Source: Lytechinus pictus (lineage: Eukaryota). From it: DNA of 64,000 nt. The translations under genes and the position numbers were made by a program. The stretch spans positions 6,202,001-6,266,000 of the forward strand of contig NC_087252.1 of NCBI RefSeq assembly GCF_037042905.1, read 5' to 3'. This document shows, in pieces, positions 31,287-64,000 of the stretch (position 1 is its first letter; every line of letters begins with the position of its first letter). Below the pieces are notes generated by a model. That model did no database searches and was not told the DNA's origin. It saw only the letters and a list, made by a program, of their open reading frames with translations.

Positions 31287-31979
31287 GCTAGCTAACCTCT
31301 TGTGTTAATTTTGCATTGATTTCATTCTACAGATTTAATTTGTCAAAGTCTTCAACATTGCAAATATACGCAGATTGAACCGTCTCCTGCACTCAATCTA
31401 CCATGTAGATTCGCCATTTTACTTCTATAGACCTAGAATATCTAACCTATCACTTTGCCTGTCAACACAGACAAGTCCTGTGTACCTGCAGCACTGTTGC
31501 TATATAGAATTGCATAATGCAGACGAGACTGTCCGAGGCATTCCACTTGTTTCCAAAAGACATGCTTGATTACAAACCATCCTCGTCTCATTGCTCCTAT
31601 TATCAACCAGGTGAAATACCATGTACTTCCACAAAAGTAAGACTGAATTCTGGGTGCAAACAGTTACTTTTACCAGCACATCGGATAACTTTATTAACAC
31701 TGATAACGCCATCTTCTGGCAATTTCAAAATCTCCTGTAGGGAAGGATTGATGTAAATGTTGGGTTCTTGTACTGATTGGGCAGCTTCGCTGACTGCTGT
31801 AATGAACTGCCAGTTAACACAACGTAATAATTTCCTTCCAAACCAATCCAATAGTCGATATATAGCACCTTTTCCTTTTGGTTGCAAAGAGCTGCACACA
31901 CAATACTCCATATTCGGGTCACTAGAACAATGCAACACCTGGGAATGATCAGCTTAGTCCATGTAATTCATTGTCCTCT

Positions 31980-32070
31980 TTAATAGCAAAATAGATGGGA
32001 TTTGATGGCTTTCTTGAACTGGTCATCGGAGGAGTCTGTCTTCATGCCTTGAAACAATGTCCAAGGTGAT
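31980..32070 (-). pseudogene. 3' tip of an L2/CR1-type LINE ORF2
   Basis: Minus translation ..MKTDSSDDQFKKAIKSHLFCY* resembles the FKKxLKTHLF C-terminus. Confidence 0.45.
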
Positions 32071-32083
32071 TGCATGTTCAATT

Positions 32084-33736
32084 ACCGTATTTGCTGGAAT
32101 ATAAACCACTTTTAACTCTTGGAAAAAACAAATTGAGGAAACCAATGTCCACCAGAAATGGTGAAATCTGTGTCATATTCTATATATTTGAAGCAATATT
32201 TTCATGTTTTCTCTGTGATACTAAAGCAATAAAATATAAGAAAAATTATGATTTTTTGTTGTTGCAAGTGCCTGACTTCGACAATTTTGACGCAATGATC
32301 TTGTCCATGCAACACACAGCGATAATGCCTGTGCGTGGTGCTGAATGTACGGGCAACTGGCCCCAAGATCATCATACGTGTCTACGGGGATTCCTCCTGT
32401 ATATCTTAGGTATTCGTGACGATATCAATTGTATGAATTTTGCATAAATACTCACAAAACAGACCTATTACCTGTTGGCGACGAACAGGAATTGTGTTTC
32501 AGTAACTCAACACCATCACATGACCAAATAATTTGATAATGGACTCGGAGAAACAAATTGATCGCCGATACGAATTGTCACGTTACGTCGGCTTTACATT
32601 TTCTTTTCTGCGCGTTAAGTTATATCACTCGCGAGAAAGGAGTGTGGATGATCTGGCATTGCATCTGAGATGAATTAAAAGGAAAAGGACATGAAACCAG
32701 AATGAACGAGAATACTTGAAAAATAAAAGCTTTTTCATATTTCAAACAGAGAAAATGAAAGAAGGAAGTTTAGAAATAATGAAAATGAGAAAGATGGAAA
32801 TGCCAATTCTAGCATCATATTTTTCCCCTCATCATTGCTGGTTGCTTGAGAGAAGAGACTAACAAGAGAAGGGAAAAGAAATACAAAATAAATGTGGATG
32901 AAATACAAAATTTTGTTTAATAACAACGTTTTGAATCATTGCCATGTGTGGAGGAAAGAGACACACAAGAGAAGAAAGGAATTGAAATAAAAAATAAATG
33001 CGCATGAAATACAAAATTTAGTTTTACAATATAGATGTGATTTGTTGCTGATTGTTTGAGAGAAGAGAGAAAAAAAAGGATATTTAAAATATGAAATTGT
33101 GTTGTATAATTTTGTTTAAATTTTTGTTTAAAATTTTTTGTTATAAATTCTGATATCGTAATATTATTGAGGGAACCTTGGAAATTTATTTCATATGGGG
33201 TATTAGAAGTTATTCTTTCTTTGAGAATTTGTGGCCAATTTCCCAAAATGGGCCAAAGGATCTGAAATCCCAGGAACTCCTTGTCGGATGAAGAAGCGTT
33301 GAAGATGTCAAGCAACCTCTCGTTGTTATAAATGAAATTGGTATTGTCATCGCTGGAGGACCCGATCGGTGGCCTCATCGCTGTCTTCCCAAAGCACATC
33401 GTCCTCGGTCCCGTCAAGCTAGTTGGAAATGCAGCACTTCAGAAATGGCTTCTTGATTGTTTCAGCGGGCATCTTGTTCCACACCTCCAGGATCCATCCA
33501 CAGATCTGCGCTAATTCCACCTTCTTGGTCCTCCCAGACTTGGTCGTCTCCTTCGGTGCATTGGCCGTCCATTCTTCGCAGAGTTGCTTCAGATGATCCT
33601 TAAATGGCTTGTTGATTGCTACGTCGAGTGGCTGAAGAAGCGACGTCATTCCTCCAGGAATCATGGCCAGGTCTGAGTTGAGTCGCCGAAGAACAGCCTT
33701 GGACTCTTGGGACTTGTGGCACAGGAAAGCATCTAA
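32084..33736 (-). mobile_element. pogo/Tigger-like DNA transposon 3' remnant (DDE_1 transposase C-terminus at ~33200-33736)
   Basis: FLDAFLCH..LRRLNSDLAMIPGGMTSLLQPLDVAINKPFKDHLK...ICGWILEVW...FLKCCISN*LDGTEDD; candidate terminus TACCGTATTTGCTGGAATATAA at ~32084. Confidence 0.8.
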
Positions 33737-34009
33737 AAATTTCCTCCTGATTCGTCTCCCAAGCAGTAATCACTTTGTTTGAATACTTCATTGGATACAA
33801 GGGTAATCAAGTCTCCACCTGACATGAGTTGCAGGTCACCTGATCAAGGTCAAAGGTCATTAGAGGTAATTAAATTAACTTTAGCAATATAGTTGTATTT
33901 TTTTTCCTGTATTAATAATACTATAATTCATCTTGTCCTTTTTCATCGTATTGTATGTAGTTCCTTGGGACATATTGTGTGTCAATTGGGAAGGATATGA
34001 TGAAATTAA

Positions 34010-34775
34010 TTAAACGGGATAGAATTGCCTTATGCTATTAACGATCTCCCCAAATTTGTTTGGGCGTAAATTGTTCCTCCACATGAACTCATCAAGGTAA
34101 GATGGGAAAAGGGCCCGGGACGTACCGTGCTGACGCCACAATTTCCTCTTTGCACGCATCCATGTGCCTTCGATTGTATTGTTGTGAAGCCAATCATGGA
34201 TGGGATCTAAAAAATGACGTTCGTGAATGACCATATCGTGTAGATAAACCTTGTTATTCAGCTGATCAAGATGGTGGTATGCCGCCCAACCATCTCTTAT
34301 GATGTGAGTTCCAGGCAAGCACCATTGCTGGATAATGGGCTCAAGTGTGCCCCAGTTCCTTCTAGGGACAACCTGGAGAAGACATCTACCACGCTCCACA
34401 GCGCCAAACACCCGATGGCCTTCATGGTACTCGCCCCGATAGTACTTCCGATGAAAATGTTTGCTTTCGTCAATCTCGACGATGATTGGATTGCCCATAT
34501 CGTCGAATCTGCCAAGTTGACAGAAATTTGCTATGAGATGTTGGCTACAAACTTCCCTTGTCGTACCATCATCATGGATGGATGACTGCCTCCGGATGAA
34601 TTCTAAGGGCACATCCTCTGACCCTAAAAATATGAACATTATTAACTGGTTTAAGGACAAATGACTATGGGGAAAAAAGACCCCATCCAGATGTTTTTTG
34701 GGGGGATAGCACTCAGGGCATCACCACTGCCAACCGTCAGTGCCATAGCTAGCAGTTTTTCTGGACCGCACATTG
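34010..34775 (-). pseudogene. Merlin (IS1595/ISXO2-like DDE) transposase, copy 1; catalytic domain open for 216 codons
   Basis: IVEIDESK..RKY.RG, VFGAVER, TLEPIIQQWCLPGTHIIRDGWAAY, HERHFLDP, NTIEGTW, FPSYLDEFMWR; upstream W..CPEC region has a stop. Confidence 0.9.
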
Positions 34776-35231
34776 TATAGTGGGCAAGTAAAATGAATAC
34801 AAAAAAATTAATAAATAAAAACTTCTAGCTTTGTATGACTATACATTTTATAAACAACATGAGGAATGCACTGGTCAGTTTTGTGCACTATGTCAACACT
34901 TTCACCATTTCCCTTTACCCAGCATGCTCTTTCCTTCGGCTGCTTCTGTGAAGCCTGCTGGAATGTACAGTAACAGCAAGTAGAGGACCCTTCCTAGACC
35001 CTGACGTGCTTCCAATCGGGTTCCTCATGTTTTTTCCTGATGTAGGTATTCCACGCCTACGATTGACCTTACTGGGCCAGTTACTTGAATTTTCCTGTCA
35101 TATCATTCATTTACAAGCATTATAGTGATGTAAAATTATCCATAGCAATGTGCCTCCAGTTGTTTGCATGACACTGACATAGTATCCACATGATCTTGTT
35201 GAGTAATTTGGATATCCCTAAAAGAAAAACG

Positions 35232-35935
35232 TTTCTCCATATGAACTCATCAAGGTAAGATGGGAATAGGGCTCGTGATGTGCCATGCTGTCACTACACT
35301 TTCCTCTTTGCATGCATCAATGTGCCCTCGATTGTGTTGTTGTGAAGCCAATCATGGACGGGATCAACAAAATGACGTTCGTGAATGACCATATCATGGA
35401 GGTAAACCCTGTTATTCAGCTGATCAAGATGATGGTATGCCGCCAAACCATCTCTTATGTGAGTTCCAGGCAAGCATATTGCTGGATTATGGGCTCAAGT
35501 GTGCCCCTGTCCCTTGTAGGGACAACCTGGAGTTCGCATCTACCACTACCACGCTCCACGGCGCCAAACACCCGATGGCCTTCATGGTACTCGCCCCGAT
35601 GGTACTTCCGATGAAAATATTTGCTTTCGTCAATCTCGACGATGATTGGATTGCCCATATCGTCGAATCCGCCAAGTTGACGGAAATTTGCTATGAGATG
35701 TTGGCTACAAACTTCCCTTATCGTATCATCATCATGGATGGATGACTCCCTCTGGATGAATTCTATGGGCACATCCTCTGACCGCAAAAATATGAACATT
35801 ATTAAATGGTTTATGGACAATTGACTATGGGGAAAAAAGACCCCATCCAGATGCTTTTTTGGCGATAGCACTCAGGGCATTGCCACTGCCAACCGTCAGT
35901 GCCATAGCTAGCAGTTTTTCTGGACCACACATTGC
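35232..35935 (-). pseudogene. Merlin transposase, copy 2 (frameshifted, 3' truncated)
   Basis: IVEIDESKYFHRKYHRG...VFGAVERGSGRC; DNA closely similar to copy 1. Confidence 0.85.
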
Positions 35936-36727
35936 ATAGTGGGCAAGTAAAATGAATACTGAAAAAATTAATAAATAAAAACTTTTAGCTTTGTATGACT
36001 ATCCATTTTATAAACAACATGAGGAATGCACTGGTCAGTTTTTTCCACTATGATAACACTCACCATTTCACGTAACCCAGCGTGCACTTTCCTCCGGCTG
36101 CTTCTGTGAAGCCTGCTGGAATGTACAGTAACAGCAAGTAGAGGACCCTTCCTAGACCCTGACTTGCTTCCAATTGAATTCCTCATGTCGTTTCCTGATG
36201 TAGGTATTCCACGCCTACAATTTACCTTACTGGGCAGTTACTTGAATTTTCCTGTCATATCATTCATTTACAAGCATTATAGTGATGTAAAATTATCCAT
36301 AGCAATGTGCCTCCAGTTGTTTGCATGACATTGACATAGTTTCCAGACGATTTTGTCTGGTAATTTGGATATTCCTAAAAGAAAAGTGTCCAGGGACTCT
36401 CATTTCTGACCTAGCATATAGCAATGAAGTGATTCTGTACCCTTTTGTCAAACAAATTTCATATTTTTTTAATGCCAAACTTATGTTTCTTCAGCGGCAT
36501 TCTGATTCATCTCCCAAGCAGTAATCACTTTAAAAAAAATATTTCTTTGGATATAAGGGTGATCAACATCAGTGACCACCTGACATGAGTCACATGATCG
36601 AGATTAAGGAACTTTAACAATATTGGGGGTTTTTTTCCTGTAATAATCCTGTAATTCATCTTATCCGTTTGCATGTAGTTCCTTGGGACATATTGTGTGT
36701 CAATTGGGAAGGATATGATGAAATTAA

Positions 36728-37487
36728 TTAAACGGGATAAAATTGCCTTATGCTATTAACGATCTCCCCGAATTTGTTTGGGCCTACATTGTTCCTCCAC
36801 ATGAACTCATCAAGGTAAGATGGGAATAGGGCTCGGGATGTGCCATACTGACACTGCAATTTCCTCTTCACACGCATGAATGTGCCCTCGATTGTATTGG
36901 TGTGGAGCCAATCATGGATGGAATCAACAAAATGACGTTCATGAATGACCATATCATGTAGGTTAACCCTGTTATTCAGCTGATCAAGATGATGGTATGC
37001 CGCCCAACCATCACTATGATTTGAGTTCCAGGCAAGCACCATTGCTGGATAATGGGCTCAAGTGTGCCCCAGTTCCTTCTAGGGACAACCTGGAGAAGAC
37101 ATCTACCACTACCACGCTCCACGGCGCCAAACACCCGATGGCCTTGGGTACTGGCCCCGATGGTACTTCCGATGGAAATACTTGCTTTCGTCAATCTCGA
37201 TGATGATTGGATTGCCCATATCGTCGAAACCGCCAAGTTGACGGAAATTTGCTATGAGATGTTGGCTACAAACTTTCCTTATCGTATCATCATCATGGAT
37301 GGATCACTCCCTCTGGATGAATTCTATGGGTACATCCTCTACCCGTAAAAGTATGAACATTATTAACTGGTTTAAGGACAAATGACTATGGGGAAAAAAG
37401 ACCCCATCCAGATGCTTTTTTTTTGCAATAACACTCAGGGCATAGCCACTGCCAACTGTCAGTGCCATAGCTAGCAGTTTTTCTGGG
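36728..37487 (-). pseudogene. Merlin transposase, copy 3 (frameshifted)
   Basis: SDGWAAY..HERHFVD..HTNTIEGT..YLDEFMWR..QFYPV*. Confidence 0.85.
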
Positions 37488-37495
37488 TAAGCTAA

Positions 37496-38275
37496 CTAAA
37501 CGAGATAAAATTGCCTGCTGTTATTCATGATCTCGCAGAATTTGTTCAGTCCTAACTTTACATTATTTCTCCAAATGAACTCATCGACGTAAGATGGGAA
37601 TAGGGCTTGGGATGTGCCATGCTGATGCCACAATGTCCTCTTTGCACTCATCAATGTGCCCTCGATTGTATTGTTGTGAAGCCAATCATGGATGGGATCA
37701 ACAAAATGACGTTCGTGAATGACCATATCTTATAGATAAACCTCGTTATTCAGCTGATCAAGATTAAGGGATGCCGCCCAACCATCTCTTATGATGTGAG
37801 TTCTAGGCAAGCACCATTGCTGGATAATGGGCTCAAGGGTGCCCCAGTTCCTTCTAGGGACAACCTGGAGTTGACATCTACCACTACCACGCTCCACGGC
37901 GCCAAACACCCGATGGCCTTGGGTACTCGCCCCGATGGTACTTCCGATTAAAATATTTGCTTTCGTCAATCTCGACGATGATTGGATTTCCCATATCGTC
38001 GAATCCGCCAAGTTGACGGAAATTTGCTATGAGATGTTGGCTACAAACTTCCCTTATCGTATCATCATCATGGATGGATCACTCCCTCTGGATGAATTCT
38101 ATGGGTACATCCTCTGACCGCAAAAATATGAACATTATTAACTGGTTTAACGACAAATGACTATGGGGAAAAAAGACCCTGTCGATATGCTTTTTTGCGC
38201 TTTCATTTCCACTCTGGGCATCGCCACTGCCAACAGTCAATGCCATAGCTAGCAGTTTTTCTGGACCACATATTA
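37496..38275 (-). pseudogene. Merlin transposase, copy 4 (frameshift and stop)
   Basis: Same motifs; directly abuts copy 3. Confidence 0.85.
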
Positions 38276-39440
38276 CGTAGTGGGCAAGTCAAATGAATAC
38301 TAAAAATAAATTATTAAAAAATCCTAGCTATATATGATTATACAAATAAACAACATGAGAAATGCACTGGTCAGTTTTGTCCACTGTGGCAAGACTTTCA
38401 CCATTTCCCTTTACCCAGCATGCACTTTCCTACGGCTGCTTCTGTGAAGCCTGCTGGAATGTACAGTAACAGCAAGTAGAGGACCCTTCCTAGACCCTGA
38501 CATGCTTCCAATTGGGTTCCTCATGTCGTTTCCTGATGTAGGTATTCCACGCCTATGATTGACCTTACTGGGCCAGTTCCTTGAATTTTCCTGTCATATA
38601 ATTCATATACAAGCATTACATTGGTGTAATGTGCCTCCAGTTGTTTGCATGACATTGACATAGTTTCCAGACGATTTTGTCTGGTAATTTGAATATTCCT
38701 AAAAGAAAAGTGTTCAGGGACTCTCATTTCTGACCTAGCATATAGCAATGAAGTGATTCTGTACCCTTTTGTCAAATAAAGTTCATATTTCTTTAATGCC
38801 AAACTTATGATGTTTCTTCAGCGGCATTCTGTAAAAAAAAATGTGACCAACTCCCTCATGAATTTCAGGTTTTTTCAACTGTGTACATACAAAAATACAT
38901 GTATCTAGCATTTTTTATAGGGATTTTCATTGAAATATGCTCAAAGCACCCTTCTCTATAACCTAATATGATTTTTATTTCATTATCACAGAAAGCATAC
39001 ATAATCTGTGTTTTGATAACCTACCCCTCATTTTCAATTTTAATGAAATTTATTTAGACATTGATATGGTATCATGAAAACCTGTTGCTTGATTTCAGTA
39101 TCATTCCCATATTCAAGATTAGCCCCAGGAATGCTAGCATAACTGGAGCATTAAATTCATGGCCAAGCTTAGTCGATTGCTGCAGTCGATGAGAGAAAAT
39201 TTCCTCCTGATTCATCTCCCAAGCAGTAATCACTTTTTTTGAAATATTTCTTTGGATACAAGGGTCATCAAATCTCAGTGACCACCTGACATGAGTTGCA
39301 GGTCACATGATCAAGATTAAGGAACTTTAACAATATTGGGGGGTTTTTTCCTGTAATAATCCTGTAATTCATGTTATCCGTTTGCATGTAATTCCTTGGG
39401 ACATATTGTGTGTCAATTGGGAACGATATGATGAAATTAA

Positions 39441-40525
39441 TTAAAGGGGATAGAATTGCCTTATGCTATTAACGATCTCCCCAAATTTGTTTGGGCCTAC
39501 ATTGTTCCTCCACATGAACTCATCAAGGTAAGATGGGAAAGGGCCCAGGACATACTGTGCTGACGCCACAATTTTCTCTTTGCACGCATCAATGTGCCCT
39601 CGATTGTATTGTTGTGAAGCCAATCATGGATGGGATCAACAAAATGACTTTCGTGAATGACCATATCTTATAGATAAACCTTGTTATTCTGCTGATCAAG
39701 ATGGTGGTATGCCGCCCAACCATCTCTTATGATGTGAGTTCCAGGCAAGCACCATTTGTGGATAATGGGCTCAAGTGTGCCCCAGTTCCTTCTAGGGACA
39801 ACCTGGAGTTGGCATCTACCACTACCACGCTCCACGGTGCCAAACATCCGATGGCCTTCATGGTACTGGCCCCGATGGTACTACCTATGTAAATATTTGC
39901 TTTCGTCAATCTCGACAATGAGTGGATTGCCCATATCGTCGAATCCGCCAAGTTGACGGAAATTTGCTATGAGATGTTGGCTACAAACTTCCCTTATCGT
40001 ATCCTCAATAATGGATGACTCCCTCTGGATGACTTCTGGATGACTTCTAAGTGCACATCCTCTGACCGCAAAAATATGAACACAAGTGTGCCCCTGTCCC
40101 TTCTAGGGACAACCTGGAGTTGGCATCTACCACTTCCACGCTCCACGGCGCCAAACATCCGATGGCCTTCATGGTACTGGCCCCGATGCTACTTCCTATG
40201 TAAATATTTGCTTTCGTCAATCTCGACAATGATTGGATTGCCCATATCGTCGAATCCGCCAAGTTGACGGAAATTTGCTATGAGATGTTGGCTACAAACT
40301 TCCCTTATCGTATCCTCAATAATGGATGACTCCCTCTGGATGACTTCTAAGTGCACATCCTCTGACCGTAAAAATATGAACATTATTAACTGGTTTAACG
40401 ACAAATGACTATGGGGAAAAAAGACCCCATCCAGATGCTTTTTTTTGCGATAGCACTTGTGGCATTGCCACTGCCAACCGTCAATGCCATAGCTAGCAGC
40501 TTTTTTGGACCACACATTGCATAGT
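39441..40525 (-). pseudogene. Merlin transposase, copies 5 and 6 (internal tandem duplication, junction near 40081)
   Basis: The VEIDES-GAVER segment occurs twice (~39770-40080 and ~40082-40380); N-terminal WQWQCHKC knuckle. Confidence 0.85.
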
Positions 40526-40529
40526 TTGC

Positions 40530-41290
40530 AAGTAAAATGAATACTAGAAAATTAATAAATAAAAACTTCTAGCTTTGTATGACTATACATTTTATAAACA
40601 ACATGAGGAATGCACTGGTCAGTTTTGTCCACTATGGTAACACTTTCACCATTTCACGTAACCCAGCGTGCACTTTCCTCCGGCTGCTTCTGTGAAGCCT
40701 GCTGGAATGTACAGTAGAGGACCCTTCCTAGACCCTGACATGCTTCCAATCGGGTTCCTCATGTCGTTTAATGATGTAGGTATTCCACGCCTATGATTGA
40801 CCTTACTGGGCCAGTTACTTGAATTTTCCTGTCATATAATTAATTTACAAGCATTAAATTGGTGTAAAAATTATACATAGCAATGTGCCTCCAGTTGTTT
40901 GCATGACAGTGTCATAGTTTCAGACAATTTTGTCGGGTAATTTGGATATTCCTGAAAAAAAACGTTCAGGACTCTTATTTCTGACCCAGCAAATTGCAAT
41001 GAAATGATTGTGTACCCTATTGTCTCGCAAAGTTCGTATTTCTTAATGCTAAATTTATTATGTTTCTTCAGCGGCATGCATTGAATCGTCCCAGCACGAC
41101 CCCATCCCTTCCTTCAACAATTTTCAAGTTCTGATATGGTAAATAGTGCTTGTAGAATGCCGCATTGAAGTGTTCATAAACATATTGAACCTTTCGCCCA
41201 GGGTTGCACTTTTGTCCTCACAATTATAAAAATGAATCACATTTCAGTCCATACAGCTGAAAGTTTGATGGTATCACAATCGAAGCTAAA
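40530..41290 (-). pseudogene. piggyBac-type transposase remnant; shorter copies at ~34780-35225, 35940-36505 and 38280-38830
   Basis: IHFYN...ERFNMFYEHFNAAFYKHYLPYQNLKIVE, then GRAGTIQCMPLKKHNKFSIKKYELCETIGY, then TGPVRS; resembles the piggyBac pattern LHF..F..Y.P.QNLSIDE...QYMPxK..KFGIK..LC..GY...GTVR. Confidence 0.7.
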
Positions 41291-42145
41291 ATAGAGTTGT
41301 TTCTTAGTATCTGATGATATGTAGAGATGAAATCCAGATGCTTAGTCATTATTGGAGGCCAACCTAATCTTGAAGTATTAAGTGTCATGGCATGTCAAAA
41401 AGAAGGCAGTCAGCTCAGTTAAAGAGAGTATCAACAACAACATGTTCTTTCCATGGTAATTGCTTGTTCAATTATCTTTACCACAATCTTGAGGGGTAGT
41501 TAATAGAAGACAGAGATATTAATTTGCTTGAATACAACTTCTTTCATATCATCTTTGAAATCATCATCCGTTATGACATCACCTGTGTTGTTTATCACTT
41601 ATTCCTTCCGATATCGCAAATGCTTACCTCAGTTACACCTTTACTATTTTTACCAAAACATATATCAGACATGACAATCATTTCTTCCTCATCACTGTTA
41701 TCACTCTTTAACACACATTTGTCATATGTAGCATTTATCACTCCTTTGTAAAGTTCATACGACAAGGACTTGTTATTATGATTAATTATCATTACCCAAT
41801 CGCTCCTGCACTCATTTTCATACAAGAGAAGAACCTTGTATCATATGTTAGAAATTTGAAATAATCATGATTTATTAACTTGCTATTCCCTGGAATTTAT
41901 ATCCCTTTCTTCCTCGCACCCTTTTGCTATCATGAAATATATGACCCCAGTATCCTACCAATCATTCATCGATCGTCCAAGTCATGATGCAGCACTTAAT
42001 GCTAGTAGAATGCGGCATTGAAATGTTCATATACAAATCAAGCCTTGTTCCTGTGCTTGTTGACATAAGACCGTCTTGGGATTGTTGTATTTCATGTAGT
42101 TCCTTGGGACATTTATATGGCAATTGGGGAAGGATATGAAGCTAA

Positions 42146-49290: not shown

Positions 49291-49339
49291 GCATCATAAT
49301 TAGGTCAATACAAGCCGAGGTGGATATTTTTTAGTCTAA

Positions 49340-51109: not shown

Positions 51110-51185
51110 AATTGTTAGAAGCAGTATCTTATACATGTATTTTATGCGTTGTTCTACGGGAAGCCAGTGAAGGTTTTTTAAGTAC
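51110..51185 (-). pseudogene. Small L2/CR1 LINE ORF2 fragment
   Basis: LKNLHWLPVEQRIKYMYKILLL matches the LHWLPVxxRIxYKI motif. Confidence 0.65.
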
Positions 51186-51219
51186 ATGTAGTTGGTTACA
51201 TTTTTTTTAAAGAAATCGA

Positions 51220-52300: not shown

Positions 52301-55061
52301 CATGTACAACTCAAAAGGATTCATTCTGTCCTGTAATCCCCGTCAGGTCTGGGCCTATTGGCTATCTGTGTATACATGGAAAAAGAATGAGAGTAGACAA
52401 ACATGAAAAAAAAATTGGTAATTCAAGATTCCCTGAAAAATAGGTAAGGTTTGCAAACATTCAGCCCCCCCCCCCTAGTCTTCTTAGGTACCGTATGGAA
52501 ATAGCCCAGTCTATTTAGGATTAAGTTTGTTTTTTTTCCCTAATTTTTTTTACTTTAATATATAAATTGCATATATCAAGTTACATGTTTCAAATAATCT
52601 GCTGCTTTAATTGCCGTACTCCTTCCATTCATTTTGGCTCAATCCATTTTTTTATATCCTGGATGAAAATTGTCACTGCTTGTGCAAGTAGGAACAAAAA
52701 TTTGCCATGTTGGTTTCATCACTAGTGCTTCAATCAATATCTCCTCCATATTTAGAAACATAATTTTGTCAGTTATAAAAAAGGAAATATTTTGCGATAA
52801 GCACTGCATCAGTTTGTTGTTCAATAAAAACAAAAGCTTACCTCTCTGAGCCTGTTGACACGATCAAGATGCATTAAATGAGCATGGTGATTTTCTGCCA
52901 TTTTTATTCTGCATAGAAAATGAAATTGACATAGGGTTAAGTTTCAATGGCAAAGAAAATACATAAGAAAGATGAGCATGAGACTAGAATGAAATTCAGT
53001 CATTGAGATAACAGTTTGACAAAATTCCTTCAAATCTGCATTCTGAAAATTGTCTCATCTCTGTAAGGATGTCCCCTATTTTATCTCTGAAAACGCCCAT
53101 TTTTTTTTCCTTTGCTAAAAATACATGTGACTGCTCTCCCAAATTTATTTTCTTTGAAACAATTCCTCATCTCAAATGAAATCTTTAAATTGCTGAAAAG
53201 CCTGCCAATCCTCTGTAATATTGAAGTAATTGTAAAACTTTCTTAAGACAAGAGTTATAGCTTTTCAGAAGCACATACATGTAGAACATAATCTCAGCCC
53301 TATAACACAAAGAAAGCTGCACAAAATAGATCAGGTAAGGTTAAAAGCATTTTCATTATATCACAGTGCATAAAGAAAAACAAAAGTTGTACATAATAGA
53401 AAAACCAATATACATTATTTCTTGTAACATGATAATTGATTTACCTTGGCTGATACAAAGAGACTTGAAAATATTGGCAACATAAAAGTAAGAATTGATA
53501 ATGAATGTTACGGAAGTGCAATCAACACTGATACATAAAATTGTCGACCACGATTATTTTTTATCAAAGGACATAAAGTTTTATACAAACCAGAGATAGA
53601 CAAGCAGACATTTTCAATTAACTTGTTATCCTGCATGCTGGCAATAACCATATTCAACCAGAAAGAGGAAAAAAAATATGAAAATTTTCATTCCATTCTC
53701 CATGCCAAATGTTGTGCCACTCCACTCCTGAATAAAACTTAAAAGCTATTTAATATACCTTCTAAATTGACATGACAATGAAATTATTAAAAAAATCATT
53801 ATGAATAAATAATATTCCCAACTCTCTCGTTACATTTTCAAATTATAATCCATTCTGACTTATCCTTTTACATTTTTTCTCAATTAATTAAAAAAGGTAT
53901 AAAGAGAATATTTTCCCCCAATTTAACAATAAAAAGTTGATCAATTAACACCTTAGGAAGGAGCATCTAGCTGTATTATGGATTGTCAAGTACATGTACT
54001 TCAGATGGAAAGCTGATCTACAAGTGGAATGGACAAGTATGGAATTAGTTTAATAAGTATTTTGCAAGTAAGGACATTTTCTCAAAGTAGAAGAAAAAAT
54101 TACAAAGACTCTGATACATGTACACAAGAAGCTGAATATACAATGAATAAGAAATTCTAATAAAACAATTGATTCTGAGTCACGCCCGAAGGTATTAGTG
54201 ACAAACTTTGGGATATAAGACTTCCTTACCAAGCCTGAATCTTGCAGTACAAAGGTAATTTGGATACTTAGCTAATAAAGCTGGAAATACATACACTGCA
54301 CAAGAAATCCATAATTATAGATTAATGTATTAATTAATTTATTGTGTGCACGTTGGCACCTAAGCATGTCTCTACGTCAGCCTAAATCTTTGCAAAATAA
54401 CCCACATTTCTCAAATATCAATAAGAAATTTATAAGCAAAATCAGCAAATCAAGAAAAGAACAAAATCATGCATTTATAGTACAAAATCTATCATACCTT
54501 GGAAATATGACTTTTAAGAAATTAATATGATTGGTACTATGGTCCATGCATCTTTGAATGCATTGGAAAAAAGCCTACGACCCATTAAGTATACTGAAAA
54601 AGAGAAAGAACTCTTTTAGTATGTTGCCAGTAATTCAGAGACAGGAATATGAAATAGGTGTTCATTTAATCACAATGTTTGGATGGCAAATACATGCAAG
54701 TGTTTGTTGATGTATTCTGATTGCAAAAAAATAATTTATTTTTAGACTGTCATTGTTTCTGCTCATTTCATTAAAACAAAGTGTGATTGGATGTTTTTTT
54801 ATTATATAGTCACTGTCTGACCACACTGTCATTTTGAGGTTAATGAAAGTTTACGAGGGATAAGGTGAAATGAATTTGGACAAATACAGATTTATATTAA
54901 TTTCTTTTAAGTGGTGTAAATGCATGATGAGCAACATTGAAGCGTTTATAATTTAGGCACCTCTAATCTTCATCTTCATTGTCTGTATCGTCCTCATCCA
55001 TTATGGGACCTCTTTGAGCTGAATTTTGACAATTAATACATCTGCATTGATCAGTATACAA

Positions 55062-55222
55062 ATGATGCATGGGTTAGAGTGGGTCAGTAGGAACTGTGTG
55101 CACAAGGTAACTTTGGCATGGTTTAACCCACGAGGCGCAGCCGAGTGGGTTTAGACCATAATGCCAAAGTTACCGCGTGCACACAGTTCCACTGACCCAC
55201 GAAAGAAACCCATGCATCATCT
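55062..55222. repeat. ~160-bp imperfect palindrome
   Basis: ATGATGCATGGGTT..GTGGGTCAGT.GGAACTGTGTGCAC..GGTAACTTTGGCAT pairs with ATGCCAAAGTTACC..GTGCACACAGTTCCACTGACCCAC..AACCCATGCATCAT around GAGGCGCAGCCGA. Confidence 0.9.
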
Positions 55223-55270
55223 GTTTTATAGAATGGAAAAAAATTATTGAATAAACCACAAAAATTAATG

Positions 55271-55415
55271 ATTTACCGGATGCATGATAATTTCATGCGT
55301 CCGGTAAATTCAATTTACCGGACGCATGAAAATATTTACTGGACGCATGATTTTTTTTACTGGACGCATGATTTTTTTTACTGGACGCATGATTTAATAT
55401 TACCGGATGCATGAA
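55271..55415. repeat. 21-bp minisatellite with one inverted unit
   Basis: TTTACYGGACGCATGA plus T/A spacer, about six copies; TCATGCGTCCGGTAAA inverted at ~55293. Confidence 0.85.
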
Positions 55416-56023
55416 AATACCAAAATGTAATGCAGACCCTTTGATAACCCTGGACAACATAAATATGTAGGCTATGCCTAAATTGATAATATGTTGGCAC
55501 AAAGGCATTATTATTATACCCAAAATGCCAGATACAGCTTTGCATTGACTAGTCTAGATCTATGAGGACCGGTATGAGGCAGCCTCAGACCTCCAATAGC
55601 TGTGTGTGTATGCCCGGGCCGCGCCGGGGGCCAGTGCCTACGGCTGCCTGGGCCTGCAGTGGAGATTTGGCTGTGCACAGCCAGCCCAGCTGAAACGTTA
55701 GATCGTATGTCTGGACTTCTCAACTAACGAGTTTGCAGGCAGTTTTAATCGGCCCCTATGACAATTACGGTACCGCATTTATACTTACAGATCATTTTGC
55801 ATCCTTTATTTGATTCATTCTGCCTTGATCGAAAATTCAAAATTTTGACGTAAACAAGCGTAACAGTACATGCGCGATGACATCACAATGACCTTTTCGG
55901 ACGATAGCTTGTTTACAGTGGATATCGTTTTGATTATCGGGATATCGTTCATGCAGCCCAGTAAAAATTCTTGCATTGCTCTCAACCAATCAGATTGCAG
56001 GGATTTTCCCATCCATTCTATAA

Positions 56024-57510
56024 TGCATGCTACTCCATGCTGACGACATGAACATCTGCCCTTTCCATGAGTTTTGGGTTCTTCACAACCAGTCTTCTTG
56101 CAACTACAATAGGTTAGCTCGAGGAGGGTACTTGGTGCAGGAGGAAGGTCACCCCAAACTATTTCTATGTTGGAATCTATTTATACATCCATGGTTGTGT
56201 GGACTAGGAATAACAGGAAATTGTTCAAAGCATCTGATATGTATTGCAGACTGATAGTTAGCTCTCATAGTGTGCTTTAGTGGGGGGCATATTCATTTCT
56301 GTCTTTGTGCCCATTAAGAATTTGTTGTATCTAGCTGTATTAACGCTGGAACAATCCTGATCATACAGTTTGCAAACAAACTTCTCAACTGTGTTAAGCA
56401 CACCTTCCTCTAGGGCAAATGAAGTCCCAAACATCTGGAAGGCTGACTGGAAATCATTAGATGAGGTCATCAGCTTCAGTGCCTTTTTCTTTGACCTTCC
56501 ATAGAAGCAACTCGTAGAATCACATCCTGAAAAGCAGTGGAGGCCGATGAGAGCATTTGCAACACTATCCCCGAGATGAGATCTTATAGCTGTCAGGTTG
56601 ATTGTACGTTTGTTATTGCCCCTACCAGTATGGAAAAGTAGATGGGCCTGAATCTCATGTGCCTTTGCAACCCCGATAATAAACACATCTGTGTCTGGGC
56701 TCTTAATGAATACTGCTGGTGAAGTGGTCGAAGATGAAGGCAGACATGCAGCAGCATACTTACAGTGCAGAAAGAGCCTGGTATCTGCTTCCTCATGATT
56801 ACAATGAAGCTGACTCAGAGCTTCAATCTTGAGTACCCCATCTAAATTCTGGAGCAAATGACAGCTTTCATCATGAGCCATGATGACTTTGACATCTTGA
56901 AGTAGATTTGGATTCTCTTGCCATGTCTGGAATAGGAAGCGAATCAAAGCCTCTTTGTTTTGACTAGATGAAAGAAATTTCTTCCACTGGTTTGGTACTT
57001 TCTGCTCCATACCGTAGATCTTTGTGAGCTGACTTCCACTTGCAGCTCTTCTTCCCCTCTCTGCCGCCTTGATACTGAGTGTCAACTACAAAGTGTATAG
57101 TATCACTACGGGCACTGTGTGCAAGGCGAACAAGCTGTTGAATTACATATCCTGATAGTTCACCAAAAGTAGATGGCACAGCCTTCTGAGGTATTTCTTG
57201 TAGCATCGCCATTCCATCAATTACCCAAACACTGTTAAGCGGAATTCCTTCTACTAGAGGAGCAGGCTCCACACTAGATTCTATAGCATGAAGCAGAGAT
57301 GCCTTTGTAGTCTTGGTCAATGAACCATCAACAGTTGCAAGAGCAAGTGGGAGAGGACCTAGAGCACTCTAAAAACTTCATAAAACTCTTCTTAGAAAAT
57401 GGAATTACCCTTCCGTGAGTCTGGGTAACATGAATAAAACAGTATGAGGACGTTTTTCCATCAGAATCGTCCGTTTCTGATGACAGAGACGAGGACGTAT
57501 ACGCGTCCAT
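56024..57510 (-). pseudogene. Academ(X)-type transposon protein remnant: XPG/PIN-like nuclease plus Cys-rich finger, internally deleted
   Basis: LATVDGSLTKTTKASLL, VIDGMAMLQ, SIKAAER, NKEALIRFL, HEEADTRLFLH, SPDTDV, FSGCDSTSCFYGRSK, EKFVCKLY, MPPT, RANYQ, PPAP..LLELTYCSCKKTGC...RCSCRQHGVAC; frameshifts at ~57080 and ~56270. Confidence 0.75.
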
Positions 57511-57995
57511 CTTGCAAAGTGAGAGTGAATGCTACGAGCGATGTGATAGGACAAGACAGATTTCCTCCTTCTAGACGTGAGTGTAACACGTGAGCTGGTT
57601 GGCTTACAACAATGCCAACAATGGTCACAAATTTTTGGGTGTTTTTCAAAATACTTGAAAATTTGCAAGTTTCACATTTGACGAGTTTGATACGAGACTT
57701 TTATAATATTTTTACATAATATCTGATAATATAAAGTAGTTGCCCGACAGTGGTCACAAGAAGTCATCTTATTGGCCTTTGCATCGCGGCCTATTACATG
57801 TATGTCCAAGTTTCATGAACTACATGCAGGTACATATTAAATATCTAAGTTATGAATCACTTATATAGCTTAACCTTAGGATAAGATTTCAATGTTGACG
57901 CCAGGGCCATCAGATACGCAACCCTACATGTACATGTATAGTCTAACTCTGCTATGCAGCTAGGCTGGACAAAAAATAATAATGACAAAACTTAC

Positions 57996-58166: not shown

Positions 58167-61029
58167 CTACAACAAGAAAGAAAATAATAAAATGTTTTGT
58201 TAAACTATATTTTGATGACGTTTGGAATCGTAAAAGACCTATAATAATCATAATTTTACAAAGAAAACCATTATGGTTTACTTAATTTTTAAACTATTAA
58301 AATTAGATATTCCGGGGGTACCCATCATCTCACTCCCACAAGTGTTTTAGTCATGAAATGAATTATTCATAATTTAATTTTCACAGCAAATGAATGCTCC
58401 AGTCTTCATGGTCTAAGTGAGTATTATGCATAATTCACCTGTGCAGTTGTTATTTTGGAAAGATGTATTTCCCAATTCATCACAATAGTAGCAATTTCGT
58501 CATAAATTTTCTTGAAAATTATGCAATTTTTACTTTAGACTGCTCTTTTTACCGATAATATCGATATCAAAGTATTCTAGTTAGGAAGTCTTTCATGAAT
58601 CAGGTTTAGTAAGATTGGAACTAACTCCGTGGTGGATAAAGATATGACTAACTTGTCCAGGTGTTGAGAAACGGGCCCCAGATGAGCAAACCCCACGGCG
58701 GGCAGGCGGCGGCTCCGGCAGAGACCGCAGGTTGGTTCTGGCGTCGAGGTGAATGTGCAATAAGTACGAAACATACTCATAGCTCCATTTCAAATTTAAC
58801 TTTAACGAGCTTGTAGACTGTAACTTCACCTAAAATTTTAATCAAATACGCTAACACTAACCTTGAATAACTTCCCAAGATTGGAACAGTTGGCATCGCC
58901 GTGTTGAACGGTAAACCGGTGAAGGTCGGAAAAGCCATGTTAAACTGGATTTTTGTTGCATGTGGTCGTAACATGCATGCACTACTATACTGCTGCGTGC
59001 ACGTGTATAACGATTGGAAACGTAGAGGGCGCTCTTTAATTTACATGAATGAAACAGCTAAGAGACGAGCGGAAACCGTATTTCGATATGGCTGTTGGCT
59101 GTTCCGATTTCGTTTTCGCTGTCTGCCTTTTTCCAAACGGAATCACGGAGAGAAAAGATATTACACATTGTATCACTTTCAAGTATACAGACTTAACATG
59201 ATAGCAAATCTGGGAATACGCAATATTTAAATATAAAAATGTATGTATAACATCAAGAGACTGCTCGATCCTTTCAACTGGGTAATAAACAAACTCATTG
59301 TCTAATGTGCTTGAGACTATTCTTGTTATTGAAGGTTGTACATACACCAGGGGATAAAACTCTGTTTGTACCTCTTTGTTTTACAACGTTGGCAAGGGAA
59401 ATTGTTTTCTGTTCCTAAAATCATACTTATACTCTTTCTTTGATGGAACTGTTATTTAAGATATGATCTAACTTTTGCAATTGGAGGAATTGCTTTTCAC
59501 ACATGATTTTCCTGCGGTCGGATAACAATTCTACTTAGTTTAATTCTTTGAGTGCCTCAGTATATTGTGGGTTGATTATACGCATTGCTCGTTTTTGTAC
59601 AGATTCCAGTAATTGTGATTGTTCGTTTGTTAACCCCCCTTCGCAAAATGTGAGCAAATAGCATTTCTTTCCTCCTCTCTCTCTGTCGTTGCCTCCTTCT
59701 CCGCCATGACATTAAAACCATCTTATTTAACGAAGAATACATCACTTCTTCACTCGCTGAGCGCGGCTGAGCTGAGAGGATTGTTGCATAACACCGGTCA
59801 AATACGGCGAAAGTGCTATATTGAAAGGAGTACATTGATTCCATATAGCGGGAAGTTATTCAAAAGCGCGCGCCGTTGAAACTCCAAGATCCGAAAGTGC
59901 GCATGCTCAGAATATCGGGCCTGTTGCCTCAGTCGAGCAGGAATCGCTCTTCTTGCGATGTTGGAGACGGGGTTTCTTGAATCTCGAGATTAATCGCGAA
60001 GAGGGCCGATCGGGCTAAAATCTCGAGATTGAGCAACTCGGGATGGTGCAGCACCGCCTATTGAAGTTCTTTCTGATTTATCACAAATGTCAAATAGTTT
60101 TCCTGTGTCAACAAGCTCTGCCAGAACCTAAGAGATTGAGCTCATTGTTTTCAACTCTGATGTTCTTGTGCTAGATAAACAGATAGACCTATATCATTGG
60201 GTATATGTTTTAGTGACTTTTCAATAGATCAACGGTACTTTCTTTTGAAAAATCTAAATCATTAAATAATGAATCGGATGTCATTAGGCCAAAGTGGAAC
60301 TCGAAGACTCGCCGTTTAGATGGGAGGTACCGCTACTTCCAGTCTCAAAATCTTTCAGAAATGTAAGTGAAGAGCTGACTTTGAAAGACTTAATCACAGG
60401 TAATGCCTCTAGATCTATTTGTGCTTCTACCCACCCTTGCATTCCATCTTCTGTGATTGGTGTCCACATTTTACTCGACAAATTGCCTTACAGCACCTAG
60501 CAAAGCACAGTGAATATAGCCTGGTACGAATTCAGTAATAATGTTGAACAAAGTTAGGAATAAAGTAAGTGAACGGTCTTCACTCCACACACTGGTCTTT
60601 CACAAGAAGCTTGGAGCAGGTGTTCTTCCCAGTGTTCAGAAAGAATGAACATTACTTGTACCATTCTCTACAACTTCCCCAGAATGCAGGCGCCAGTCAC
60701 ACCCATACTTCCATTGAATTTGCTTACAAGTCCTCATGACTGGCCGTGCAATGGAGTCACATGCAGCAGGTAAAAAAACGCTTTTGAGGTTCTTGCTGCA
60801 GCAGTATTGGTATCAACTCAGTCAAATCCTTTGATTGGCCTGGTGTTCTGCCTCTTTGACACAAGGTATAAAAAAATATGTTCATGTCAGGTTTCTTTGG
60901 CCCAAACCACAGTCAAGAAAACAGCATATATTCTTGAGTCTTACCTCTGGCGGTAGTTTGTCGACCACAGCCTGTATTGGCCAGATTGAAATTCCAGAGG
61001 TTTTTAAAGTCTAGTATCCCATAGGCAAA

Positions 61030-61262
61030 GCAGATCCATGTACAGACAAGTTTTTTCAGGTTTCCCATCCCTGCTACATCTTCCCACTTCCTGCCAATAA
61101 GATATGGCATCACTACTTGGATTCGAATCACATTCATGATATCAGTGATTTGAACACTCATGCCAAATGCCTTGACCAATACTCAAACAGTGCTTGTAGG
61201 AGTCTTGAAGTTGTTTAACACAATTTTCTTGTCCAAAGCAAGAAATAGCATGGTAGATGTCT
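61030..61262 (-). pseudogene. Third copy of the RecQ-like helicase C-terminal fragment
   Basis: VKAFGMSVQITDIMNVI and SYWQEVGRCSRDGKP; DNA similar to 49400-49670. Confidence 0.65.
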
Positions 61263-61399
61263 CCTTCTGGTTCTCAAAGAACTCTAGTATGTGAAAGCTT
61301 TCTCAGGAGTTTCTATGGGAATGACTGAAAATGGGGATATTGGAGCTTCATCACTTTAACATCTGCTTTACAACTTGGCCAACAGTGTTCAGGATAGGT

Positions 61400-62000
61400 C
61401 CTTAGCATGTCCAATTTCATCGATTTTAGTGGTGAACTACCCTCAATGATAGACCTATTGATCTCATCAATACAAAGTTCTCGTCAGCTTCAGTTGCAAT
61501 TGTTTTGCTTCGACGAGCTTCACTCATCTATTTCTGTTATGAAATTATTTGTAATTGAACCCTTGCTTGCTCACGTCTCCTTTGTTGTTAAGGTACCTGG
61601 CGTAGACAATCAGTTGTTTGATGTTACTGATGTTGGTCGATTCGTCAACTAGCAACCCTAATTTTGCACTTTGATTGATTTCTTGAAGTCTGACTTTCCT
61701 GGTTGTCCCCGACAACTCTCGAACAAACCCCTGTTCATCTGCTCTGAAATGTAATTTGTATATCCTTTCGGCTGCAAAGTTTGAACTTTTGACAAGCTCA
61801 CCGAGTCCAGGTGTCGGAGATTGATTCTGCAAACTTCAAGAGCCTGGAACTTTGTTGTATGGGAAAGCTCTTCCTTGCATAAAAATACATACTGCGAAGA
61901 GCTTCTCAGACGGCTCACCGGTTAGTACTGGTAATGCGTTGGAAAGCACCCTGGATACCACCTTTTTGGATGATGTCAGTTACAGACACCTTGCATGGCC
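61400..62000 (-). pseudogene. hAT transposase remnant (ZNF862/DUF4371-like)
   Basis: KEELSHTTKF..L and INQSAKLGLLVDESTNISNIKQLIVYARY (xDESTDxS..QL..Y.RY). Confidence 0.75.
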
Positions 62001-62113
62001 CTCATGCAGCTCTTGTGCAAATTACTTCCCTCATGATTTTTTACGTTCCAGATCCTCAACATTGAGGCATCCTCTGAACTCCCCATAAATTCTGCACACA
62101 TAGAATTACACTT

Positions 62114-62460
62114 TTAATTCACATCTTTCTTTATACGGATTTTAGCTTTGTGATTGACGCTCAGATGCATCCCTTCATCGTGCATATAAAAGCATATATG
62201 ATGCATCTGGCGGAGCAATAGTCTAAAGAACTCCTTCCTTGGTCCCCCAATTTCAACGGCACCTTCAACATACCTGTCCATAGCTGAGGTGCGAAAAATG
62301 ATGTCCAGCATCTCAGTTAGATCAAAATTAGGGCGCCTTATCGCCCTTAATGCACCAGAAAGGGGATCGGCACGCAGCACCTGTATCAGTATTATTTTCT
62401 CAGGGTCGAGGGCTGAAGCCAGTCGGGCAAGCTGCGCCTGGAGCGTTTGCCTGAATGATG
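62114..62460 (-). pseudogene. HECT E3 ligase (G2E3-like) N-lobe fragment
   Basis: ALRAIRRPNFD..MLDIIF..EGAVEIGGPRKEFFRLL matches the HECT motif EGxDxGGPxREF. Confidence 0.65.
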
Positions 62461-63039
62461 TACAATTACAAAGAGAAGGGATTAAAATCTCATAATAAAA
62501 TGATTAGGTAATTGTTGGTGCATTTTTGTGTACCATATTCAGATCTTGGCCCTAGATGAGTGAATCATCAACCAATTTTGCCAACATGAAGGTATATGAA
62601 TACTCTTATTAAGCTTCATTTTATTTCATTTATCAGTAAAGGTGGCAAATGAAACACAATCCGTCGAGATTTTTTTAAGTTAAAACCTACCATTTTCACA
62701 GAAAGCATGGCAAGAGTTCCATATGCACATACCGCCCAGGCAAGCAAAACAAATTTTATGTCGTGAATAATTCGCGACGGAATTGGAGACGTGAATTTCG
62801 TCGTGAATCTTCGTGATTTGGTCTATTTGCGATGTCCCTTCAGGGCCACCATACAAAATGTGCAATTTTTACTTGTAATAATGTTCTTGAGTAGATTCCA
62901 GTTTTAGGTGCCTCTTTAATGCACTCTTAAAGTGAGGAAAATTTGTAACAGCTTTTACTTGATTAGGAAGAGCATTCAAAAATTGGATGCCATTAAAATA
63001 AAAAGTGTTCCCTATATGACCCTTATGTTTCGCTAATAC

Positions 63040-63460
63040 AAAATTAAAATTACTATTTCATCCAAACACAAGACTTAGCTGCTTCTCATCTGAAAGTCAT
63101 TTTAGTCTTGCATGTAGAACCACATTCTTTGCTATTGCTTCAGGAGTACAGAAAAGTAAGGTGAAATTCCCATCTTCGAATTCTTACTTTTCCATTCTTG
63201 GCATATTACTTTTGAAATGAATACATTTTATGCTATTCTTCTGCCACTCGAGTAGTTGGTCCTCTCTATTAGACCTACAAGGGACTTATATGCCAGGGTA
63301 AAAAAAAAACATTGAAATGTCAGCCATGAATTGTAATAAGGTGAGTTAGGGGTGGGGAACTGGTTTCAAAGTTCCATCAATGTAGACAGTGGTTACCTGC
63401 ATGTTAAAGGGGACAATAGTAAACTATAGTCATAAGAAAAATAGTCAAGATAGATGATGG
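63040..63460 (-). pseudogene. Highly degraded fragments: MULE transposase (~63250-63460) and RecQ-like helicase N-terminal part (~63040-63200)
   Basis: TVYIDGTLKPVPHP (compare MULE YxDGTFKxxP) and DGNFTLLFCTPEAI (compare LLFxSPE). Confidence 0.4.
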
Positions 63461-64000
63461 TTGCATAAAATGGCTGCCTGAGCAATTGTGAACTATCTGA
63501 CATGGTAACATGGAAAGTAGTCAGTCAGGAAAGGTGCACGCATAAAGACACAACGACACCTTCCACAAGTGAATTAACCTCCTCCCAATCACTGTTGAAG
63601 GGTCTTCCACAATCCTCTTGACATCTGTCTTTACTGTTGAACTCCTCACATTACTCATCAATGCCACACGACTTTCTTGGAGCTTTTGTCCATCATGCAA
63701 CCTCTTATTGATAGAAAATAATTCTGCTGGTGCTTTTTGCTGAATTACCTTCTTGCATTTATTTCAAGTTCTTTCTTGCCTCTCTATTTCTCTGCATTTT
63801 CCATGTCCTATGCCCAAGCTAACTTGACAAATTTACTAGTTGGGGCAGGTATGGGACAATCCTGTCAAGTGAAGGCAGATGTGTATGTTTTTGGCTTACA
63901 CAGTCTGGGTATGATACTGTTAACACTAACTAGGCCGGGCTTTTTTGGCTGTTCTGTTGGGGGGGGGGGGGTTGATTCAACCCCCCCCTGAGATCTTGGC

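Follow-up and report, generated by a model that had tools for sequence, protein, structure and literature searches.

A one-strand block of antisense transposase remnants downstream of a sea urchin kinase gene is a candidate read-through piRNA cluster

The window analysed here is a 64-kb stretch of the 812 Mb genome of the sea urchin Lytechinus pictus (G000:C8:6,202,001-6,266,000). Its left half is a plus-strand host gene, and from 31.5 kb onwards it consists of a block of transposon coding remnants which lie on the minus strand. The block is about 53 kb long (31.5-85 kb) and runs some 21 kb past the window end. It is a real feature, and a good candidate for a read-through cluster of PIWI-interacting RNAs (piRNAs), with RNA support over its first 12 kb. 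From DNA layout and stranded RNA, we lean slightly towards reading it as a uni-strand, downstream-of-gene piRNA cluster, fed by read-through and directed mainly against DNA transposases. Flanks of 30 kb upstream and 200 kb downstream were added (294 kb in total), and positions past 64,000 are counted on from the window.

The block is directly downstream of an expressed gene with intact splicing and frame. The last six exons of this GHMP-family kinase, once joined, give an intact open frame which stops near 30,073, and one exon of 24 amino acids matches GHMP_kinases_C (Pfam, E 0.0086). A PDB search with one exon returned no match; from its motif, the kinase is presumably glucuronokinase-like.

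RNA reads were mapped on 25,150-43,350, a stretch chosen to include host exons as a strand control. Three stranded runs were used (rRNA-depleted, paired, from one study, tissue not stated, about 6% of each read). In reads across host junctions the first mate is always minus, and this direction therefore marks plus-strand RNA: there are 18-35 such reads at four of the five junctions in runs X19 and X20, and none in the opposite direction. Over the 19 bins of 31,827-43,350, the summed depth is 46.8, 46.2 and 19.1 on the plus strand versus 0, 0.11 and 0.14 on the other one, and 15, 16 and 15 bins have plus coverage. This RNA is antisense to every remnant within 31.8-43.3 kb. The plus-strand RNA expected in the original prediction, which was made from the letters of the window, is thus present over 31.8-43.3 kb in all three stranded runs. 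Reads at least 95% identical are probably local, because the best off-locus DNA match to 31.3-43.3 kb is only 86% (39 scored of 1150 candidates).

The depth in X19 and X20 falls from 18 at 31.8-32.4 kb to 5-8 as far as 33.6 kb, and is about 1 past 34.3 kb; the latter value, which holds to 43.35 kb, compares with 0.14-0.16 in the intron-only bin at 28.8-29.4 kb. Another set, X15, has no library type on record, and its contigs are spliced and give no strand. X15 contigs with 0 other letters span 31,217-33,984. With 0-2 other letters, their depth is 37-80 at 31.2-34.0 kb versus 29.6 for exons, 17 at 35.1-35.6 kb and 7 at 38.0-38.5 kb, which amounts to 1.3-2.7 times the exon depth at 31.2-34.0 kb and 0.2-0.6 times over parts of the Merlin array described below. 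For 47.4-57.4 kb, an RNA search listed no matching run; X15 and X16 contain 0.59 and 0.53 of the words of this stretch, which, given the unrecorded library type and strandless contigs of X15, are not counted as evidence.

The block RNA appears continuous with the upstream host gene, whose transcript likely drives it. The first plus-strand AATAAA downstream of the host stop is at 32,228, so that the first Ginger-type piece and the LINE (long interspersed nuclear element) piece probably lie within the host 3' untranslated region (UTR) and the rest of this RNA is probably read-through. Plus-strand AATAAA is not depleted in the block (0.75-1.3 per kb versus 1.2-1.5 in the flanks). The window was originally described as free of host genes from about 31.9 kb. 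Indeed, no host-gene domain is found among the scanned open reading frames (ORFs) of the block, but its first 2-4 kb are apparently host 3' extension.

The strand bias was assessed in two ways. The Pfam scan covered all 272 stop-to-stop ORFs of at least 45 amino acids in 31-64 kb (145 minus, 127 plus; E<=0.01), with the satellite at 43.36-47.4 kb excluded. Matches are obtained for 13 of the 145 minus ORFs versus 0 of the 127 plus ORFs: DDE_1 (one), DDE_Tnp_IS1595 (eight), HTH_psq (one), DDE_Tnp_4 (two) and Lir1 (one, weak and probably due to chance). The tblastn and hidden Markov model (HMM) scans of the 294 kb used a library of 288 ORFs from loci of this genome (Merlin, Academ, LINE, Harbinger, piggyBac, hAT, pogo, MULE, Gypsy, Penelope), to which TatD, Tc1, Ginger-type and block-derived queries were then added. 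Above the reversed-sequence decoy maximum of 12.2 bits, they give only minus matches at 30.2-100 kb. The library was seeded partly from families already noticed on the minus strand and holds no Helitron, Polinton, P, Kolobok, DIRS or some other families, whose plus-strand pieces could be missed; the Pfam scan is free of this seeding bias but less sensitive. Both approaches agree with the earlier claim that this part of the window has no plus-strand coding remnants, and systematic annotation does not reveal similar numbers of fragments on the two strands.

A few candidates were discarded. The plus ORF at 58,871-59,227, a potential counter-example, ends inside a high-copy non-coding element, and none of 22 candidates proved to be a homologue. 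The tblastn "LINE" match at 25,085-25,162 and the "piggyBac" matches at 30,858-30,947 and 31,230-31,286 are not counted, being due to non-coding repeats which some library ORFs include; 30,884-31,283 is a 98% copy of an element resembling a miniature inverted-repeat transposable element (MITE).

Thirteen remnant groups are recognised in 31.5-64 kb, all minus, which cover 12.6 of 32.5 kb (39% coding homology; see the table). About 13 remnants on the minus strand had been predicted, and the bias stands in the window. The list itself has changed: eight items are firm (pogo DDE_1, Merlin, piggyBac, TatD, psq-HTH, Harbinger, Academ and hAT), four are weak (RecQ-type helicase, HECT, the LINE tip and a second LINE piece, the last not counted separately), and MULE has no match in the Pfam, tblastn or HMM scans. 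Two minus items had been missed, the Ginger-type integrase/OTU element and the CACTA piece at 60.7-61.1 kb. The caveat that some pieces may be cargo, and so not independent, was taken into account: if HTH is merged with pogo, helicase with Academ and HECT with some other element, and the weak LINE is set aside, 9-10 groups remain, all minus. The chance of a shared strand is 2x0.5^13 = 2.4e-4 for 13 groups and 0.002-0.004 for 9-10 independent groups, both uncorrected for the selection of the window from a whole-genome scan. The probability of about 2e-4 first put forward is therefore too strong, since several pieces are possibly cargo or nested and one plus piece lies just outside the window.

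Beyond 64 kb, the minus bias goes on to 85 kb, with the exception of this short plus Harbinger piece. No match to the transposon library is seen at 63.9-73.9 kb in the tblastn/HMM scans. The CACTA, helicase, hAT and HECT pieces recur at 74-81 kb as tandem copies (79-93%). A minus element follows at 81.9-84.9 kb, whose relatives carry DUF7869 (7 of 10 scanned; 822 representatives at E<=0.001), and which we take to be Sola-like. With this element and the plus Harbinger piece included, 14 of 15 uncollapsed groups of the extended block are minus (p 0.001); tandem duplication swells the piece count, not the family count. The Pfam scan covered 150 of the 182 downstream ORFs of at least 55 amino acids. 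A minus ORF at 68.6-69.0 kb (L001:4646-4996), convergent with the plus piece, may be a second Harbinger ORF, judging by its resemblance; it has no Pfam match.

Table. Features of the window in order of position, with strand and support
Feature	Position	Strand	Support
GHMP-family kinase host gene, last six exons	25506..30073	+	five GT-AG junctions in RNA reads
3' UTR and 3' extension of host transcript	30074..33984	+	RNA depth, X15 contigs, AATAAA positions
Ginger-type (integrase + OTU) C-terminal piece, aa 338-442 of L198 ORF	31547..31851	-	HMM 75 + 40 bits
Plus-only RNA (candidate precursor)	31827..43350	+	19 bins, three stranded runs
LINE 3' tip, weak	31837..32060	-	several copies elsewhere, 79-81% alike
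pogo/Tigger: DDE_1 C-terminal part and non-coding end	32110..33769	-	PF03184 E 9.9e-11
Tandem array: 7 Merlin catalytic cores alternating with piggyBac cores	33941..42628	-	PF12762 x8, tblastn
Ginger-type ORF, second piece, aa 297-339	41449..41610	-	14.4 bits; 84% over 51 nt
Satellite inside block, ~28 units of 139-150 bp	43363..47391	.	
TatD-family protein fragment, N-terminal part	47825..48398	-	63-65% to P0001/P0002, PF01026 carriers
psq-type HTH, pogo-like N-terminus	48981..49214	-	PF05225 E 2e-6
RecQ-type helicase C-terminal pieces, two local copies	49392..50312	-	Helicase_C E 0.079, weak
Harbinger transposase, three exon-like pieces	51110..52310	-	PF13359 E 2.1e-5 and 0.0038
Academ, internally deleted	53336..57809	-	92-96% DNA to C17:21.80-21.81 Mb copy; 94% aa
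Second high-copy non-coding element	58,188-58,680		
High-copy non-coding MITE-like element	59155..60065	.	many copies, 86-98%; orientation not determinable
CACTA/EnSpm transposase piece	60737..61113	-	tblastn to downstream paralogue; its sister copy Transposase_21 E 0.0013
hAT-type (DUF4371/FAM200) piece	61548..61835	-	Atlas 0.94 to DUF4371/FAM200 clusters; Pfam DUF4371 E 0.019
HECT-like fragment, weak	62067..62667	-	72% to unnamed P0003; Pfam blank
MULE piece of the original prediction, unconfirmed	63524..63763	-	

The local background consists of the 294 kb around the locus, and is not a random sample of the genome. Within it, DNA-transposase profile matches of at least 12 bits occur only at 31.5-57.4 kb. 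The flanks hold six retroelement loci, three minus and three plus, which include a Penelope ORF in sense orientation within an intron of the host gene (19,244-20,614, plus; 456 codons with reverse transcriptase and GIY-YIG; near-intact and 99% like a C17 copy). The left half of the window had been said to hold elements in both orientations; only this plus Penelope is confirmed as a coding element there, and no minus one was found. A genome-wide set was made of 427 of the 466 matches from seven family searches, whose lists are lower bounds, after the removal of 39 matches that were second pieces of an element already counted. It contains 19 clusters of 30 kb with at least two families, versus 4.6 expected under uniform placement (95% range 1-9).

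Several observations weigh against a piRNA cluster. The plus-strand Harbinger piece, noticed by eye, has 25 codons and lies at 67,979-68,053 (L001:3979-4053), about 4 kb past the window (46% over 24 amino acids, E 3e-4 against the library; no Pfam match). No other coding remnant on the plus strand was found in the extended block; a weak plus match to Phage_integr_3 is also seen at L003:189-440 (E 0.011). The RNA support comes from a single study, about 6% of each run, and goes up to 43.35 kb only. The depth past 34 kb is about 3-5% of the junction depth in X19 and X20, and it is zero at 40.9-42.1 kb in all four runs, in which reads are short. In total-RNA libraries a degree of read-through is seen behind any gene, and the same low, gapped depth could result from ordinary termination read-through when libraries are rRNA-depleted. 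Genome-wide, the other 30-kb clusters are one-strand in 11 of 18 cases (p 0.24) and those at 10 kb in 7 of 9 (p 0.09), neither of which is significant. Finally, the majority of the pieces are old, with 69-85% identity to the closest relatives, and pairing with today's active copies would be poor.

The block might be a transcribed gene tail with no piRNA role, an explanation we consider fairly unlikely. Read-through would leave a region from which sense insertions are purged, because sense copies would produce transposase or interfere with the forming of the 3' end, and in which antisense insertions are tolerated and decay. The strand bias is then accounted for without small RNA, and a plus-only RNA which decays from the gene end, with its main drop near the first AATAAA, is just what is observed. 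However, it is not clear from this model why DNA-transposase relics should occur here only within 294 kb, nor why bare catalytic cores should be so densely packed (transposase coding homology makes up 82% of 33.3-42.6 kb, over 9 kb). The near-intact sense Penelope in an intron of the same gene also speaks against purging, as does a bias which persists up to 85 kb, at a distance of 55 kb from the host stop codon.

Similarly, the heap could be a neutral transposon graveyard, a low-constraint, duplication-prone spot in which the RNA is generic read-through and the shared orientation arises from tandem copying, nesting bias and the choice of an extreme window. Tandem copying is indeed extensive (the Merlin and piggyBac copies of the array are 85-91% alike, and the CACTA/RecQ/hAT/HECT units of 74-81 kb 79-93%), genome-wide co-orientation is not significant, and one plus Harbinger piece exists. 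We nevertheless hold this quite unlikely: the 9-10 collapsed groups are all minus (p 0.002-0.004, uncorrected), as are 14 of the 15 uncollapsed groups of the extended block, and the direction of the remnants is antisense to the only RNA seen.

The arrangement of the pieces informs on how the block was built. The Ginger-type ORF is split by 9.6 kb, with LINE, pogo, Merlin and piggyBac between its two pieces; these 9.6 kb are later insertions. The source locus of this element carries rve and OTU domains (75% DNA identity to the window piece), and we take it to be a Ginger from this domain set. The closest genomic relatives of the HECT piece are 88% identical, those of Merlin 81%, pogo 73-86%, Ginger 75% and piggyBac 69-74%, and the identity spans 69% to 96% across all pieces. 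This nesting and this spread of identities (69-96%) fit stepwise insertion, deletion and local duplication, that is, slow accretion rather than one mobile unit.

Capture as reverse-transcribed mRNA was also considered; it is rejected for Academ, both ends of which are kept, and probably excluded for Harbinger, which has exon-like pieces.

A single giant composite mobile element with captured, co-oriented cargo genes appears highly improbable. HECT, helicase and TatD pieces can be cargo, and a 600-bp HECT piece is common to a heap on C7 at 88%. Against this, the pieces differ widely in age, some sit inside others, and the ends of Academ are its own. In DNA searches with 31.3-43.3, 57.8-62.1 and 62-64 kb, each piece was found separately elsewhere, and of the 39-40 candidates scored per search none matched across two families away from the locus; 47.4-57.8 kb was compared only with fetched loci. 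The original alternative, one multi-copy giant element, thus finds no support among the scored candidates.

In the favoured piRNA-cluster reading, RNA polymerase runs on from the plus-strand GHMP-kinase gene into the block, which plus RNA covers at least to 43 kb. Many unrelated elements have inserted over a long time, partly nested, cut by deletion and with some units copied head-to-tail. Nearly every coding remnant is antisense to the read-through RNA. This RNA would be cut into antisense piRNAs which silence related elements and their cargo genes elsewhere, the predicted targets being Merlin, piggyBac, pogo, Harbinger, Academ, hAT, CACTA and DUF7869-type elements. Antisense insertions would be kept through piRNA production and sense insertions lost, and trimming to catalytic cores, together with tandem copying, may raise the piRNA dose. 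PIWI is present in sea urchins, and a review cites piRNA-like RNAs from urchin gonad which are clustered and match DNA transposons (PMC13666137).

Clusters of this type are known in other animals. Both in mammals (PMC11615739) and in mosquitoes (10.1101/2022.08.22.504762), long single-stranded read-through RNAs are described as precursors of piRNAs, and piC-DoGs are piRNA clusters downstream of genes reported in mouse, human and hamster (PMC11615739). As in the piC-DoGs described there, read-through in the urchin follows a host gene that is intact and spliced, and leads into a stretch of packed transposon fragments, tens of kb long, with an antisense bias. Unlike the urchin block, piC-DoGs contain LINE-1 and endogenous retroviruses, and their piRNAs are measured (PMC11615739); the urchin block consists mostly of cut-and-paste transposase cores, is tandemly amplified, and is known from DNA and RNA layout. 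The same paper reports that read-through is not generally linked to the transposon content downstream of genes (PMC11615739).

The core piRNA clusters of mosquitoes are also described as uni-strand sources downstream of an ordinary gene, and as traps for antisense insertions (10.1101/2022.08.22.504762). Unlike the urchin block, they trap non-retroviral viral elements; their dependence on the upstream gene is reported from knockdown and is conserved between species (same preprint).

Drosophila flamenco and flam-like clusters share with the urchin block a long one-strand pile of nested antisense fragments (PMC10643416). They differ from it by a strand bias driven by Gypsy long terminal repeat (LTR) elements and by expression in somatic follicle cells, according to the same source (PMC10643416). 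Six Gypsy ORFs from this genome give no match in the block, a small library with which minor pieces could be missed. The block was originally called flamenco-like; in the strict sense this label does not apply, because Gypsy LTR enrichment is absent. By this comparison, the urchin block resembles the piC-DoGs of mammals and the read-through clusters of mosquitoes more than it does flamenco. A downstream-of-gene read-through cluster is the nearer model, because the RNA seems to carry on without a break from the host gene.

That piRNA clusters can be rich in DNA transposons is already known from molluscs (PMC6128900). These are enriched for Kolobok, hAT, Dada and Polinton, and in young elements, whereas the pieces of the urchin block are mostly old (PMC6128900 for the molluscs). 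The urchin block differs in that LTR elements are nearly absent, many superfamilies are represented and bare catalytic cores are amplified in tandem. No uni-strand or read-through piRNA cluster in any echinoderm was found in the literature searched, most subscription papers being outside its scope.

Should the locus produce piRNAs, an invertebrate deuterostome would join mammals and mosquitoes among the animals with read-through clusters; its cluster would mainly target DNA transposases and be built by the tandem amplification of trimmed cores. Should it produce none, it would show that one-strand heaps with antisense RNA can arise without piRNAs, which calls for caution in sequence-based prediction.

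A broader proposal, which we entertain tentatively and find doubtful, is that read-through piRNA clusters specialised on cut-and-paste transposons exist throughout the genome of sea urchins. Inserted elements would be trimmed to their catalytic cores, and these cores and cargo (HECT, helicase) would be tandemly amplified in them, and perhaps passed between clusters, to form an antisense library against whole superfamilies. Such clusters would then be predictable from DNA alone. The genome-wide co-orientation of neighbouring families is suggestive only.

Four heaps serve as illustrations, three of them chosen as already co-oriented and the one on C7 for the shared HECT piece. At C10:30.09-30.12 Mb (L193-L196), MULE, pogo, Harbinger and HECT-like and piggyBac-like ORFs are on the plus strand, the exceptions being a two-strand Tc1 (inverted-pair ORF) and a minus gag-like ORF. 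At C7:28,735,000-28,745,200 (L171, L172), tandem integrase, piggyBac-related and HECT pieces are all plus. Merlin and Academ are on the plus strand at C14:10.55 Mb, and hAT and pogo on the minus strand at C14:9.07 Mb. Co-oriented tandem runs of a single family (Merlin, piggyBac or hAT) are also seen at C15:11.80, C9:1.84-1.86, C10:9.36-9.37, C11:4.49 and C1:40.54 Mb.

The HECT piece at 62,067-62,667, 600 bp long, is 88% identical in the co-oriented C7 heap; its presence in both heaps reflects a common source or copying between heaps. We take it to be HECT-like from a motif. The unnamed proteins P0003 and P0004 have internal repeats of the HECT-like piece or of those next to DUF7869, a hint that other genomes contain duplicated heaps of this kind.

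Other remnants deserve a few details. The LINE tip, presumed to be one from a C-terminal motif in its translation, has no Pfam match. The pogo piece is 60% identical in amino acids to L132 and has many non-autonomous relatives (73-86%). The Merlin cores of the array are about 870 bp long and 24 bp from a piggyBac core; an intact Merlin, known from two loci with 99% identity along their whole length, spans 3.4 kb or more, and only the coding core of about 870 bp is present in the block. The piggyBac piece is 39% identical in amino acids to an intact ORF. The TatD piece gives only leads below 0.8 in an Atlas search, and the psq-HTH piece is 31% identical to an ORF adjoining a pogo DDE_1 gene. 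A third copy of the RecQ-type helicase lies at 61,025-61,219, and a downstream paralogue matches Helicase_C with E 1.4e-4. The short LINE-like piece at 51,110-51,187 (13.6 bits versus 12.2 for the decoy) lies between Harbinger exons and is not counted separately. Academ matches the C17 copy to both ends, has lost about 6 kb inside and contains an unrelated insert at 54,850-56,224. The satellite at 43,363-47,391 has higher-order repeats and is T-rich on the plus strand.

Outside the block, a near-perfect, MITE-like inverted repeat lies at 8,828-9,304 (about 230 bp per arm, 98%). A 133-bp local duplication at 26,225-26,484 repeats the beginning of the 26,401 host exon, and RNA reads use only the acceptor of the second copy. 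The next plus gene-like ORF starts at about 100.2 kb (extended 100,165-101,694; L004:6165-7694). The exons after it are presumably HYR-like, and a partial exon tested there has no Pfam match. The ORF itself has a signal-peptide-like start, followed by a long Pro/Ala/Gln repeat.

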